Sequence record: OQ718158.1
Origin: Escherichia phage vB_Ec-M-J
DNA length: 64,000 nt
Reading direction: 5' to 3' (one strand)
How positions within the stretch are numbered: the stretch's first letter is position 1; every line of letters begins with the position of its first letter. A program made the translations under genes and the position numbers. Shown here piece by piece: positions 3,505-61,183 of the stretch. Below the pieces are notes generated by a model that had not been told where the DNA came from, did not search any database, and saw only the letters and a list, made by a program, of their open reading frames with translations.

Positions 3505-3536
3505 GTATTCATTGGCAGATAAGCCGTAGCCCATAG

Positions 3537-10998: not shown

Positions 10999-11211
10999 AT
11001 GGCTAATATCCGGTCGAAATTAAAAAATGCAAAACAAGTTTTATTTTCAGATCATGAATACTTTAATAAAGATATTACAGGAGTTACAAGTATCAAGGAA
11101 GTAAAAGAAAAAACCGGCGTTTTGTGTGATGTGCGATTAGTTGGGACATTTGGGAATAACGTGCTATATCGCTGCGGTGATTACAATTTTACACTGACTA
11201 TCATTAACTAA
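10999..11211 (+). CDS. hypothetical early protein (70 aa)
   Basis: track ORF; RBS GAGAGAGA. Confidence 0.6.
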   Translation: MANIRSKLKNAKQVLFSDHEYFNKDITGVTSIKEVKEKTGVLCDVRLVGTFGNNVLYRCGDYNFTLTIIN

Positions 11212-11230
11212 AAATATTATCACAGTACTA

Positions 11231-11259
11231 TTGACATAGTTTGATAGTACTGACATAAT
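11231..11259 (+). promoter_or_regulatory. class-B early promoter
   Basis: TTGACA-17-CATAAT. Confidence 0.55.
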
Positions 11260-11294
11260 AACTTTTATCAACTACACTACTAAGGAATTAAAAA

Positions 11295-11474
11295 ATGGCT
11301 ATCATCGCAAAAACTGAAATCGTTGGTCTGGATTCTATCATCATGACGTTTGAAGATCAAAAAGGTATGTATGTAGTTTCCTATGGTGATTATGTTCGGG
11401 AGTATGAAACGGTAGACGAAGCCTTTGAAAGTTATATTCGCCAGGTGAATAAAGCATACGACGACTACCGCTAA
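11295..11474 (+). CDS. small protein (59 aa), not in ORF track
   Basis: ATG after RBS AAGGAA downstream of class-B promoter. Confidence 0.5.
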   Translation: MAIIAKTEIVGLDSIIMTFEDQKGMYVVSYGDYVREYETVDEAFESYIRQVNKAYDDYR

Positions 11475-11501
11475 AATATATTACCAGTACTATTAAATCT
11501 A

Positions 11502-11529
11502 TTGACAACGTTTGATAGTACTGTATAAT
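11502..11529 (+). promoter_or_regulatory. class-B early promoter
   Basis: TTGACA-16-TATAAT. Confidence 0.55.
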
Positions 11530-11573
11530 AAGTTTTATAAACAGTAGTTAACTTAACCTAAGAGAGAAACAAA

Positions 11574-11717
11574 ATGATCGCACTGGATTCATTCATCGAC
11601 GCAGTACTGGCAAAAACTGGCGAGGATCTGACCGCAGAACAATACGCGATGATCGAGCAATGTCAGCAAAACGGTAAATCGGTGAAAGATACTGTTAAGA
11701 TTATCCGCAAGATGTAA
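11574..11717 (+). CDS. small protein (47 aa), not in ORF track
   Basis: ATG after RBS AAGAGAGAAA. Confidence 0.5.
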   Translation: MIALDSFIDAVLAKTGEDLTAEQYAMIEQCQQNGKSVKDTVKIIRKM

Positions 11718-11723
11718 TATTAT

Positions 11724-11752
11724 AGCCCACTGGTTAACGCTGGTGGGCTTTA
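11724..11752 (+). terminator. terminator-like hairpin
   Basis: AGCCCACtggttaacgctgGTGGGCT then TTTAAT. Confidence 0.45.
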
Positions 11753-11816
11753 ATCATTTACCCTATACAATGCCAGTACTAAACCGTTTATCTCGTTAGA
11801 ATGCGTTACAGGACGT

Positions 11817-12020
11817 TTGACAATGATTAGCATGAAATCAGTACAAAAACAAATAGAAACATTATCAAAAATTAAACGTAAACAATACTCGTTAGAATAT
11901 ACAATCAATGGTAACTATCATCTAATGAAAGAAAATAATTTTATAGTCATTGATGAATCATTGCAAGTTATTAGTATAGTACTGAAAGCATTAATTAATG
12001 ATAGAAAAAAATTAAAATAA
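11817..12020 (+). CDS. hypothetical protein (67 aa), AT-rich
   Basis: track ORF; no clear RBS or promoter. Confidence 0.4.
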   Translation: MTMISMKSVQKQIETLSKIKRKQYSLEYTINGNYHLMKENNFIVIDESLQVISIVLKALINDRKKLK

Positions 12021-12023
12021 TTG

Positions 12024-12052
12024 TTGACATACAATGCCAGTACTGGCATAAT
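12024..12052 (+). promoter_or_regulatory. sigma70-like promoter upstream of box and GATC cluster
   Basis: TTGACA-17-CATAAT. Confidence 0.5.
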
Positions 12053-12077
12053 ACTTACATCAAGACGAGAACGTCAC

Positions 12078-12106
12078 TAACCCATAGGGTGCACAAATGT
12101 AACTAT
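12078..12106 (+). promoter_or_regulatory. conserved box copy
   Basis: TAACCCATAGGGTGCACAAATGTAACTAT. Confidence 0.45.
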
Positions 12107-12110
12107 ATAA

Positions 12111-12190
12111 TATCGATCAATAAATGATCAAAAAAGTACTGGATCAATTTAGCATAAGGAGTATAATTCTGATCAATTCTTGATCAAAGG
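12111..12190. repeat. cluster of five GATCAA repeats
   Basis: cGATCAAtaaatGATCAAaaaagtactgGATCAAttt..ctGATCAAttcttGATCAAagg. Confidence 0.6.
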
Positions 12191-12348
12191 CAATATACGC
12201 AGTTGAATTTATATAGACAGTACAAAGGCGTTACTATCCGTGGTAATGCTGATGGATATGTAGTATCATACGGTTTGAATAAGATAAGCACTAGTAGTAT
12301 TATTGTAGCATTACAGTACTATAGTATTTTTATAATGAGGTTAAAATA

Positions 12349-12606
12349 ATGGCTGTTGGATTCGCGAAGGACGGGGCCGAGCAAGACGAGATTAACGCAG
12401 TTATTCAGGCCGCTGTAAACCACGCTAGAACGCAAATTAACGCACAAATAGAATCACTGATACATTGCCTCGACTGTGGCGATAAAATCCCTGAGAATCG
12501 CCGCCAGGTCGTTAAGGGGTGTAAGTACTGTATCACTTGCCAGGAGGATCATGATAGTACTTTTAAACGTCAACCGCGTAATTGTTGGCATAGATCTATG
12601 AGATAA
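12349..12606 (+). CDS. TraR/DksA-family C4 zinc-finger protein
   Basis: C-x2-C-x15-C-x2-C-x2-C (HCLDCGDKIPENRRQVVKGCKYCITCQ), typical of TraR/DksA zinc fingers. Confidence 0.7.
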   Translation: MAVGFAKDGAEQDEINAVIQAAVNHARTQINAQIESLIHCLDCGDKIPENRRQVVKGCKYCITCQEDHDSTFKRQPRNCWHRSMR

Positions 12607-12612
12607 AAAGTA

Positions 12613-12640
12613 TTGACAGTACTATCCAGTAGTGTATAAT
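12613..12640 (+). promoter_or_regulatory. early promoter
   Basis: TTGACA-16-TATAAT-GTTTTATATC. Confidence 0.55.
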
Positions 12641-12669
12641 GTTTTATATCTTAACTGAGGATAGAAATC

Positions 12670-13026
12670 ATGGGAATACAACATATCACGCGTACTACTG
12701 ACAATGGCGAGATCACTGGCTATCAAGTACAGGGCAAAGTAGCACAATTGCAGTACTGGTTTGTTAAACGTGGAATCATTGCACCGGATCTTGATTATGA
12801 CCGTGTAGCGTTTATTGATTCTCTTTATGTTGATCCTGATAGTCGGGGGAATGGTGAAGGTAACGAATTAATGAATGCCTTTATTGATGCCGCCGATGAT
12901 TCAGATTGTATCATCTTAGAATGCGATACGGGAGAAGATAACGCCTTTAATCTTAAAGAATGGTATGAAGGTTTCGGATTCGAGGTACTGATCGATAGTG
13001 AATATCCTATCATGATTTTATCATAG
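12670..13026 (+). CDS. GNAT-like acetyltransferase (putative)
   Basis: acetyl-CoA motif A-like VDPDSRGNGEGNELMNAF (R-x-x-G-x-G) and C-terminal Y..GFGFE. Confidence 0.5.
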   Translation: MGIQHITRTTDNGEITGYQVQGKVAQLQYWFVKRGIIAPDLDYDRVAFIDSLYVDPDSRGNGEGNELMNAFIDAADDSDCIILECDTGEDNAFNLKEWYEGFGFEVLIDSEYPIMILS

Positions 13027-26262: not shown

Positions 26263-26477
26263 AATACCTAACAATCATAAATGGACTGTTTTCGAAGTTA
26301 TTTGCCATTAACACATCAAAACTTCCAGATACTGATAAAATTATTAAGTTAAATGAAATCTACGTTCAAGCTACTCTAGGAACAAACTATCAAGAAGCCA
26401 ATGTGTATAATTACATTAATACACTCAAAAGGGTAATACAATTAAAATGCACAGACAGCACACACACAAACCCCTAG
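26235..26477 (+). CDS. F1 paralog
   Basis: track ORF; LGTNYQEANVYNYI; close paralog of 26029 gene. Confidence 0.5.
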   Translation: MQMRIITEVEYLTIINGLFSKLFAINTSKLPDTDKIIKLNEIYVQATLGTNYQEANVYNYINTLKRVIQLKCTDSTHTNP

Positions 26478-60658: not shown

Positions 60659-61183
60659 ATGTCGAAGAAGGATGCTTCGAAGAAAAAACAATCAGTACAT
60701 TTCAGTACTGGAAAAGATAACTGGACTACTCCAAAGGATTTCTTTGAAGATTTGGATGAACTCTGGGAATTTACACTAGATGCAGCGTGTGTCAAAGAAA
60801 CTGCATTGTGTGATAAGTTCTTTACACCAGAAGACAATTCACTTGAACAGGACTGGGGAAACAATATCGTGTGGCTCAACCCACCGTACAGTGATTTGAA
60901 AACGTGGTTATCTAAGGCAGTTGATGCATATAATAACGGGGCAACTGTAGTTATTCTTGTACCCTCAAGAACCGATACAATTGCTTTTCAGGATTATGCT
61001 GCTAAAATATGTGATTGTATTTGTTTTATAAAAGGTCGCTTAAAGTTCGGCATTCCTGAAGAACCAGATAAAAAGACGGACAGTGCACCATTCCCTAGTT
61101 GTTTAATAGTACTTGATAAGTATTTGACTCCAGCTAAAATCAACTATCTTAAATCTCTTGGTCAGGTGATGAAGAACATATGA
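60659..61183 (+). CDS. DNA N6-adenine methyltransferase (phage Dam-like family)
   Basis: WTTPKDFFEDLDELWEFTLDAAC ... IVWLNPPYS: NPPY catalytic motif in the arrangement of small phage Dam-type MTases. Confidence 0.7.
   Translation: MSKKDASKKKQSVHFSTGKDNWTTPKDFFEDLDELWEFTLDAACVKETALCDKFFTPEDNSLEQDWGNNIVWLNPPYSDLKTWLSKAVDAYNNGATVVILVPSRTDTIAFQDYAAKICDCICFIKGRLKFGIPEEPDKKTDSAPFPSCLIVLDKYLTPAKINYLKSLGQVMKNI

Follow-up and report, generated by a model that had tools for sequence, protein, structure and literature searches.

The 64,000-nucleotide stretch of phage DNA analyzed here (hereafter, the window) carries an array that, judged from its conservation across lineages, is a real cis-regulatory element: pairs of TTGATCAA-type boxes, 7 to 8 bp each and exactly 11 bp apart within a pair, are situated on a predicted promoter of an accessory early gene cassette. 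The array is probably an operator and possibly a methylation-sensitive one, each box having a Dam site (GATC) at its core. Over a 1-kb region around the cluster, the DNA shares 89% to 97% identity with Asteriusvirus jumbo coliphages (Turkey3, Turkey5, 121Q, PBECO4, and others; ~350 kb), a similarity that places the window in an Asteriusvirus (121Q/PBECO4-like) jumbo phage.

Direct terminal repeats of 20,993 bp have been defined in fEgEco12 by PhageTerm and restriction digests (PMC13070987), and the ortholog of the cassette occupies positions 11,167–11,478 of the fEgEco12 record, i.e., ~11–12 kb inside the ~21-kb terminal repeat. The terminal repeat region holds many small genes with sigma70-type promoters of their own, as seen from the open reading frames and promoter scan of the window and from the study of phage CBB (PMC5259590). 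The neighbors of the cluster encode small proteins without known function, together with TraR-like and GNAT proteins, and a scan of the window for tRNAs and Rfam families gave no match. The hexamer AGTACT is present in 258 copies in the window versus 16.6 expected (SD 4), and in 917 copies in the genome of TH47, a close relative for which the complete genome (352,450 bp) was assembled. Often the hexamer is part of CAGTACTG directly 5′ of a −10 element, and it is also found alone in intergenic DNA and within ORFs (examples at 12039–12044, 12135–12140, and 12315–12320); its density is highest in the first 21.4 kb and falls near 21.4 kb, consistent with the boundary of a ~21-kb terminal repeat.

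The boxes belong to a 329-bp cassette that is either present or absent as a unit (Table 1). At least 80% of the cassette length was found in 26 phage records. In phAPEC6 and G17, alignment shows the cassette to be absent and the gene 292 homologue to adjoin the TraR-like gene directly, and the same two-piece match suggests that it is likewise absent from ph0011 and UE-S1. The preliminary description had placed the cluster in an intergenic region between a promoter and the TraR-like gene; this holds in outline only, given that a 48-codon gene intervenes and that a second, predicted promoter lies inside the cluster. The 48-codon ORF corresponds to annotated gene 293 of 121Q and has a PHROG of its own. 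Between the two clades of phages described below, its reading frame stays open with conservative replacements and 62.5% amino acid identity, starting with TTG in the window and GTG in clade B, and by this coding signature gp293 is a real gene.

The upstream promoter P_A and its leader constitute one of a set of dispersed promoter-leader units. The leader motif CCCATAGGGTGC has 10 copies in the window versus 0.17 expected, and is invariant as far as Erwinia phage Hallingskeid. Copies of the leader motif CCCAYMGGGTGC lie at 3530, 10415, 12081, 14068, 17348, and 20099 on the plus strand and at 1100, 1316, 3587, and 5569 on the minus strand; the motif sits ~25–30 nt 3′ of strong sigma70-type promoters and is followed by a −10-like CTATWATAT and, usually, by a second promoter. 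The unit is common to RaK2, K64-1, GAP32, and Erwinia and Salmonella jumbo phages, and has no Rfam match. The record of EC.P1 (PQ657772.1), deposited as complete, ends at the equivalent of window position 12106, the 3′ edge of this dispersed repeat, so that the end is probably an assembly break at the repeat rather than a physical end.

Table 1. Coordinates of the cassette, its component features, and associated genes in the window.
Feature	Position	Strand	Description
Gene 292 homologue	11823..12020	+	65 aa from the 121Q ATG; stop within the left copy of TTAAAATAAT
10-bp repeat TTAAAATAAT bounding the cassette	12012–12021 and 12341–12350		
Present/absent cassette, 329 bp	12022..12350	+	Delimited by alignment with relatives; holds all parts up to the gp293 stop
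Promoter P_A, early sigma70-type	12024..12052	+	TTGACA-17-CATAAT, TG extended −10; 11/12 matches
Leader motif CCCATAGGGTGC	12081..12092	+	~25–30 nt 3′ of the P_A −10
Repeat unit 1 (pair 1)	12106..12132	+	TATAAT-ATC-GATCAAT-AAA-TGATCAAA; GATC at 12115 and 12126
AGTACT, then box 3 (GATCAA at 12142)	12135..12147	+	TGGATC at 12140–12145, putative −35 of P2
TATAAT, predicted −10 of P2	12162..12167	+	16-nt spacer; predicted start near 12174
Pair 2, GATCAAT-TCT-TGATCAAA	12171..12188	+	GATC at 12171 and 12182; predicted start to ~+14
gp293, 48 aa	12203..12349	+	TTG start; coupled (TAATG) to the TraR-like gene
TraR/DksA-type C4 zinc-finger protein, downstream gene of the operon	12349..12606	+	PF01258, E 2.3e-11
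Phage N6-adenine DNA methyltransferase	60659..61183	+	Pfam "Dam" PF05869

The preliminary description of five clustered GATCAA repeats was borne out, and comparison with the background sets the cluster apart. Five GATC sites fall within 72 bp (12115–12185), all five as GATCAA, at successive spacings of 11, 16, 29, and 11 bp; the boxes thus follow a 2+1+2 layout, with TGATCA in 3 of the 5. The window has fewer GATC sites than expected (141 versus 207 ± 14 in dinucleotide shuffles), and 5 of its 17 GATCAA occurrences belong to the cluster. When 141 sites were placed uniformly, 5 or more fell within 72 bp in 0.2% of 20,000 trials, so that the density is above background in a sequence otherwise depleted of GATC; as ~10% of GATC sites are followed by AA, the chance of all five being so is of the order of 1e-5. 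The genome of TH47 contains 581 GATC sites versus a Markov expectation of 1243 (observed/expected 0.47), and the orthologous cluster is the densest in its 352 kb. The next densest, 4 sites in 88 bp, lies within a coding sequence and includes a single GATCAA among its four sites (GATCAAGG); the other local clusters in TH47 are also inside coding sequences, and none is of the repeated GATCAA type. Depletion is uneven, with observed/expected ratios of 0.85 in positions 1–21400 of the window (the terminal-repeat/early region) versus 0.40 in 21400–64000, and the cluster stands out even against the local density of the terminal repeat. Other short palindromes are missing altogether: GCGC is absent from the window (51 expected) and from the 352 kb of TH47 (172 expected), and CAGCTG (33.6 expected), AGGCCT (12.3), and CGATCG (8.2) are not present either, which looks like strong avoidance of restriction sites.

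The boxes are organized around a predicted promoter. A 27-nt repeat, TATAAT-N3-GATCAAT-N3-TGATCAAA, occurs at 12106–12132 and again at 12162–12188; the two copies are the same at 21 of 21 motif positions and differ at 6 of 6 spacer positions, a partition expected by placement once in 296,010. Sister promoter-leader units in the window and in GAP32 consist of the leader, an A/T-rich tract, and a second promoter, P_B, of the form AAAAAGTAC-TTGCAA-N17-TATAAT, and the cassette reads AAAAAGTAC-TGGATC-N16-TATAAT in the same frame, with TTGATC in clade B. We infer from the homology to P_B that the cassette contains an internal sigma70-type promoter, P2. The sister-unit comparison further implies that box 3 would be the −35 hexamer of P2, that pair 1 replaces its A/T-rich UP-like tract (at about −59 and −48), and that boxes 4 and 5 (pair 2) cover the predicted start to about +14. 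The P2 −10 element, TATAAT, is kept in clades A and B. Overlap of boxes with predicted promoter elements recurs in each lineage, on the −35 in clades A and B, on the −10 in the more distant (H-type) loci, and on the start site in clade A. Given the poor −35 of the window (TGGATC), P2 may be weak. Promoter-like matches on the minus strand, with TTGATC as the −35, were dropped since they are not conserved in clade B.

Comparison across lineages gives a phylogenetic footprint of the boxes. Clade A phages, 95% to 99% identical, keep all five boxes, except for the loss of the fifth in Turkey5. In clade B (~79% identical), the four boxes present are all 5′ of the P2 −10; they include an 11-bp pair on the −35 that is new, and pair 2 is lacking. 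A metagenomic recombinant of A and B carries boxes 1–3 only. In Hallingskeid, a gp293 homologue with 40% identity is preceded by the same layout of P_A, leader, and pair 1 (TTGATCAAGAAATGATCAA), after which come TTGACT-17-AATAAT and a second pair, one box on each side of the −10 (TGATC-AATAAT-TGATC). The six distinct H-type sequences comprise that of Hallingskeid and those of five metagenomic loci; they have 33% to 40% protein identity and are alignable at the DNA level only over P_A, the P_A leader, and pair 1. Both pairs are found in 6 of 6, with the fourth box lost in one; the spacing within pairs is always 11 bp, and the DNA between pairs differs in sequence and in length (31–33 bp). Among the distant gp293 loci, 27 of 29 box columns are invariant versus 22 of 58 elsewhere (Fisher p 5.5e-7). 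Pair 1 is thus kept in clade A, clade B, and all H-type loci, pair 2 downstream of the −10 being confined to clade A. Across lineages, 11 of 13 boxes are GATCAA, and the T 5′ of GATC is also conserved. The distance between pairs is 56, 16, or 31–33 bp depending on the lineage, and the A-run between boxes 2 and 3 varies by 1–2 bp in length among clade A phages, from which it follows that the pairs are not in fixed phase to each other. All H-type loci have a further GATC directly after the P_A −10 (TATTATAGATCC; 729–732 in the coordinates of one locus), at the predicted P_A start site.

Gain or loss of the single 329-bp cassette brings or removes the boxes and gp293 at once, and the gene 3′ of gp293, TraR-like here, is replaced by unrelated genes in the H-type loci, so that no gene other than gp293 is constantly associated with the boxes. 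The converse does not hold: no TGATCAA boxes were found at the four loci of a third subfamily of homologues (CBB-type), so that the gp293 gene is not always accompanied by boxes. The CBB-type homologues, unannotated in phage CBB, have a promoter between two AGTACT sites 21 bp apart (within 631–705 in the coordinates of one locus) and a perfect 12-bp inverted repeat (GTACTCGCATAG / CTATGCGAGTAC) around the start codon, which suggests translational control in place of TGATCAA boxes. Searches of IMG/VR with the pattern GATCAATNNNTGATCAA were unspecific, giving at least 120 unrelated matches, and a stricter leader-plus-pair pattern returned 121Q only. Two unrelated IMG/VR contigs contain four 11-bp tandem units TGATCAATCAG (at 2132–2170 and 2663–2701) abutting TATAAT and a Shine-Dalgarno sequence, with two further contigs showing the same match spacing; by their sequence, these are an independent case of GATCAAT boxes phased at 11 bp on a promoter. 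Outside the cassette, TH47 has a single GATCAAT-N3-TGATCAA pair, located between genes at 26415–26431, ~45 nt 5′ of a minus-strand ORF of 174 aa with no assigned function; it is unusable as a test of co-evolution because the segment is found in only 8 records, all of which have the cassette.

The leading candidate for a protein reading the boxes is gp293 itself. Used as a single query, gp293 recovered 1 protein in a word-indexed search, 121Q only in IMG/VR, and 1 true match plus a spurious repeat protein in a full HMMER search, and no paralogy between gp292 and gp293 was detectable. A profile built from four subfamily sequences identified 11 family members, including the H-type and CBB-type relatives. 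The family of 12 members has no Pfam match at E values up to 10, AP2 included, and gp293 has no match in the PDB by sequence. An AlphaFold2 model based on the 12-sequence alignment reached a pLDDT of 89.1 and consists of four strands and a C-terminal helix (a model from two sequences only, with a pLDDT of 57, was not used). The predicted sheet packed on the C-terminal helix is superposable on solved AP2 domains, and the predicted fold is AP2-like and of a DNA-binding type; Foldseek searches of the model against the PDB gave no match (E above 2), and the same fold is found in many small uncharacterized phage proteins (BFVD). At the end of strand 2, the box-associated proteins carry a basic residue, R in clades A and B and K in the H-type, in place of which the box-less CBB-type proteins have A or S. 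Single AP2 domains read 5–6-bp motifs, and PfSIP2 binds two 6-bp repeats 4 bp apart through tandem AP2 domains, one domain on each (PMC2829057). The box pairs, two 7-bp repeats 4 bp apart (TGATCAA-N4-TGATCAA), have the same geometry as this tandem-AP2 target. On these grounds, we tentatively propose gp293 as the binder of the boxes and candidate autoregulator, an assignment with somewhat less than even chances.

In the scheme that these data suggest, the TTGATCAA boxes would be a DNA operator array on and around P2, within the leader of a small early operon that is accessory, comprises gp293 and then the TraR-like protein, and is located in the phage terminal repeat. With pairs at 11 bp, one helical turn, the boxes would lie on the same face of the helix, and a protein bound to them would occlude the UP zone, −35 hexamer, and start site of P2 and also block the path of transcripts from P_A upstream, shutting down the operon. 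The prime candidate binder being the product of the first cassette gene, the module would be autoregulated. The Dam-site cores would make binding likely to be influenced by methylation, the sites being fully methylated on incoming DNA and hemimethylated after replication. That the boxes are a selected, sequence-specific operator array on P2 appears reasonably probable from the footprint of conservation. For the scheme as a whole, a gene switch in which the operator array is autoregulated by gp293 and affected by methylation, we put the chances at about even, the activity of P2, repression, the role of gp293 as the binder, and the effect of methylation all being inferred. A point against it is that the GATC core of every box would also be explained by a reader of the Dam/SeqA kind only. 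Speculatively, and with a low probability of being correct, gp293 may found a family of minimal (~48–60 aa) AP2-fold phage regulators that read TTGATCAA solely when its Dam sites are in a given methylation state, the cassette being a replication-state sensor that times a TraR-like modulator of RNA polymerase. Such a sensor would exploit the fact that the DNA would be fully methylated on entry and hemimethylated after the first round of replication.

A Dam/SeqA switch without a dedicated protein is unlikely. P2 and read-through from P_A would then be methylation-sensitive: after replication of the phage DNA, SeqA would coat the cluster in its hemimethylated form, or else methylation in the −35/start region would alter RNA polymerase binding. 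In both cases, the start of replication would switch the early operon off (or on). Every box is a Dam site, and the cluster is retained in a genome that otherwise avoids GATC. SeqA prefers GATC pairs ~10 or 20 bp apart, under 50 bp, and the 11-bp pairs have the spacing that it favors in vivo and in vitro (PMC2912659), which makes a methylation-sensitive element plausible. The reading of the cluster as methylation-sensitive in the preliminary description therefore stands insofar as the cluster is nonrandom, conserved, and composed of Dam targets at a SeqA-like spacing. It falls short as a complete account, since the conserved unit exceeds GATC. SeqA and Dam read GATC only, as is known from SeqA–DNA structures, whereas the T and AA flanking GATC are conserved next to scrambled spacers, the within-pair spacing is exactly 11 bp in every pair, stricter than SeqA requires, and the boxes co-vary with one small gene. 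The conservation of TTGATCAA in strict 11-bp pairs on promoter elements thus points to a sequence-specific protein rather than to Dam and SeqA alone, and an effect of methylation is plausible as a layer on this longer motif.

The hosts (E. coli, Salmonella, and Erwinia) are Dam+ enterobacteria, and the methyltransferase of the phage is accordingly dispensable to this argument. The window does encode a Dam-family N6-adenine methyltransferase, as had been noted from the sequence, with a PF05869 match at E 1e-32 and a TIGR01712 score of 92.3 bits, below the NCBIfam equivalog cut-off of 97.05. Phage-borne N6-adenine methyltransferases, as a broad class, include almost nonspecific enzymes (PMC3299994), so the specificity of the one in the window is not readable from its family.

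Rather more doubtful is an operator for another specific factor, of the host or encoded elsewhere in the phage, with gp293 merely regulated. The footprint evidence is the same as for an array bound by gp293, the intergenic pair at 26415 of TH47 is suggestive of a regulator that has other targets as well, and the CBB-type gp293 genes have no boxes. On the other side, the boxes and gp293 come and go together, gp293 has a predicted fold of a DNA-binding type, and no consensus of an E. coli regulator was matched. By eye and against the known consensus sequences, the conserved positions do not fit IHF, Fur, PhoB, ArcA, or a DnaA 13-mer; for IHF (WATCAANNNNTTR), the boxes fail at W and at the second T.

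An RNA element, in which (U)GAUCAA repeats of the P_A transcript, located in its 5′ leader, would serve as an array for an RNA-binding protein or as a hairpin controlling translation or stability of the gp293 mRNA, is improbable. The boxes are in the transcribed leader, nearly all have AA on the sense strand, and, being palindromic, they allow pair 1 to pair with pair 2 (26-nt arms, 77% complementary) in a hairpin seen in the centroid fold. The folding energies are ordinary (z −1.7 and −1.5), however, no Rfam family matches, and the fold differs between clade A and clade B, which is without pair 2. Moreover, the boxes coincide with the −35, −10, and start site even as their positions shift between lineages. 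Still less credit can be given to the array being a functionless by-product of 11-bp slippage or duplication: neighboring boxes do look like 11-bp tandem copies (CGATCAATAAA / TGATCAAAAAA) and the cassette is dispensable, but the boxes are invariant between fully diverged spacers in three lineages and six H-type sequences, and always lie on promoter elements.

An origin, one of the element types mentioned in the preliminary description, or a P1-like pac site made of methylatable TGATCA hexamers, is the least credible reading and is barely tenable: Dam-dependent TGATCA arrays are used by the RctB iterons (PMC3937223) and P1 pac (PMC10028697), and the segment is A/T-rich and 3′ of a strong promoter, but close relatives that share the replication and packaging genes do not have the cassette, the cassette lies ~11 kb inside a 21-kb terminal repeat whose ends are mapped elsewhere in fEgEco12 (PMC13070987), the only DnaA-box-like sequence in 11500–12900 (one mismatch) is at 11701, ~400 bp 5′ of the cluster, no extremum of the cumulative GC skew falls there, and the end of the EC.P1 record is of the kind expected for an assembly break at the edge of a repeat.

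An operator array read by gp293 would be of interest given that, in the Rak2-like/Asteriusvirus jumbo phages, the regulation of hundreds of small early genes in the terminal repeat is almost wholly obscure. The cassette is a compact and testable module of promoter, operator, and 48-aa candidate regulator, conserved from phages of E. coli to those of Erwinia, and a small fold shared by many uncharacterized phage proteins would thereby acquire a function.

Several known systems share parts of this organization. Clusters bound by SeqA, in oriC sequestration and modulation of transcription, have GATC pairs about one helical turn apart (PMC2912659), as does the cluster described here, where such a density is not diagnostic of an origin on its own; SeqA clusters need GATC only, whereas here the flanking T and AA and the exact 11 bp are conserved and tied to one small gene. 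The RctB iterons of V. cholerae chromosome II have TGATCA as their only fully conserved core and require methylation for binding (PMC3937223). Like the cluster, they are arrays of short repeats with a Dam site inside the TGATCA core, but they are 12-mers in a replication origin served by a large initiator, in contrast to promoter boxes in a dispensable 329-bp cassette with no initiator gene or origin features. P1 pac contains seven TGATCA/G hexamers in two groups, and their methylation state controls protein action (PMC10028697). Two groups of such hexamers are also found at the cluster, and P1 likewise encodes its own Dam; this is a mere resemblance, as P1 pac is contained within pacA and is where the DNA of a headful phage is cleaved for packaging, whereas the cluster is internal to a terminal repeat and missing in close relatives. 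AP2 and integrase-arm domains, such as those of PfSIP2 on the bipartite SPE2, have no sequence similarity to gp293; the canonical AP2 domain has three strands versus the predicted four of gp293, which, as a single 48-aa domain, would need to act as a multimer. Proteins of the Arc/Mnt or CopG type are small autorepressors of phages and plasmids whose operators overlap the promoter of their own gene, and the cassette resembles them in having a gene for a tiny protein behind its own putative promoter, with short symmetric boxes on successive turns. It differs from them in that the predicted fold is not ribbon-helix-helix, the operator cores are Dam sites, and a second strong early promoter precedes the whole module. 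Should gp293 prove to be a plain autorepressor, the cassette would be a commonplace type of element within an unusual genome; should its binding depend on Dam, it would be a further reader of methylated TGATCA beside those of the RctB iterons and P1 pac, here in the control of transcription.
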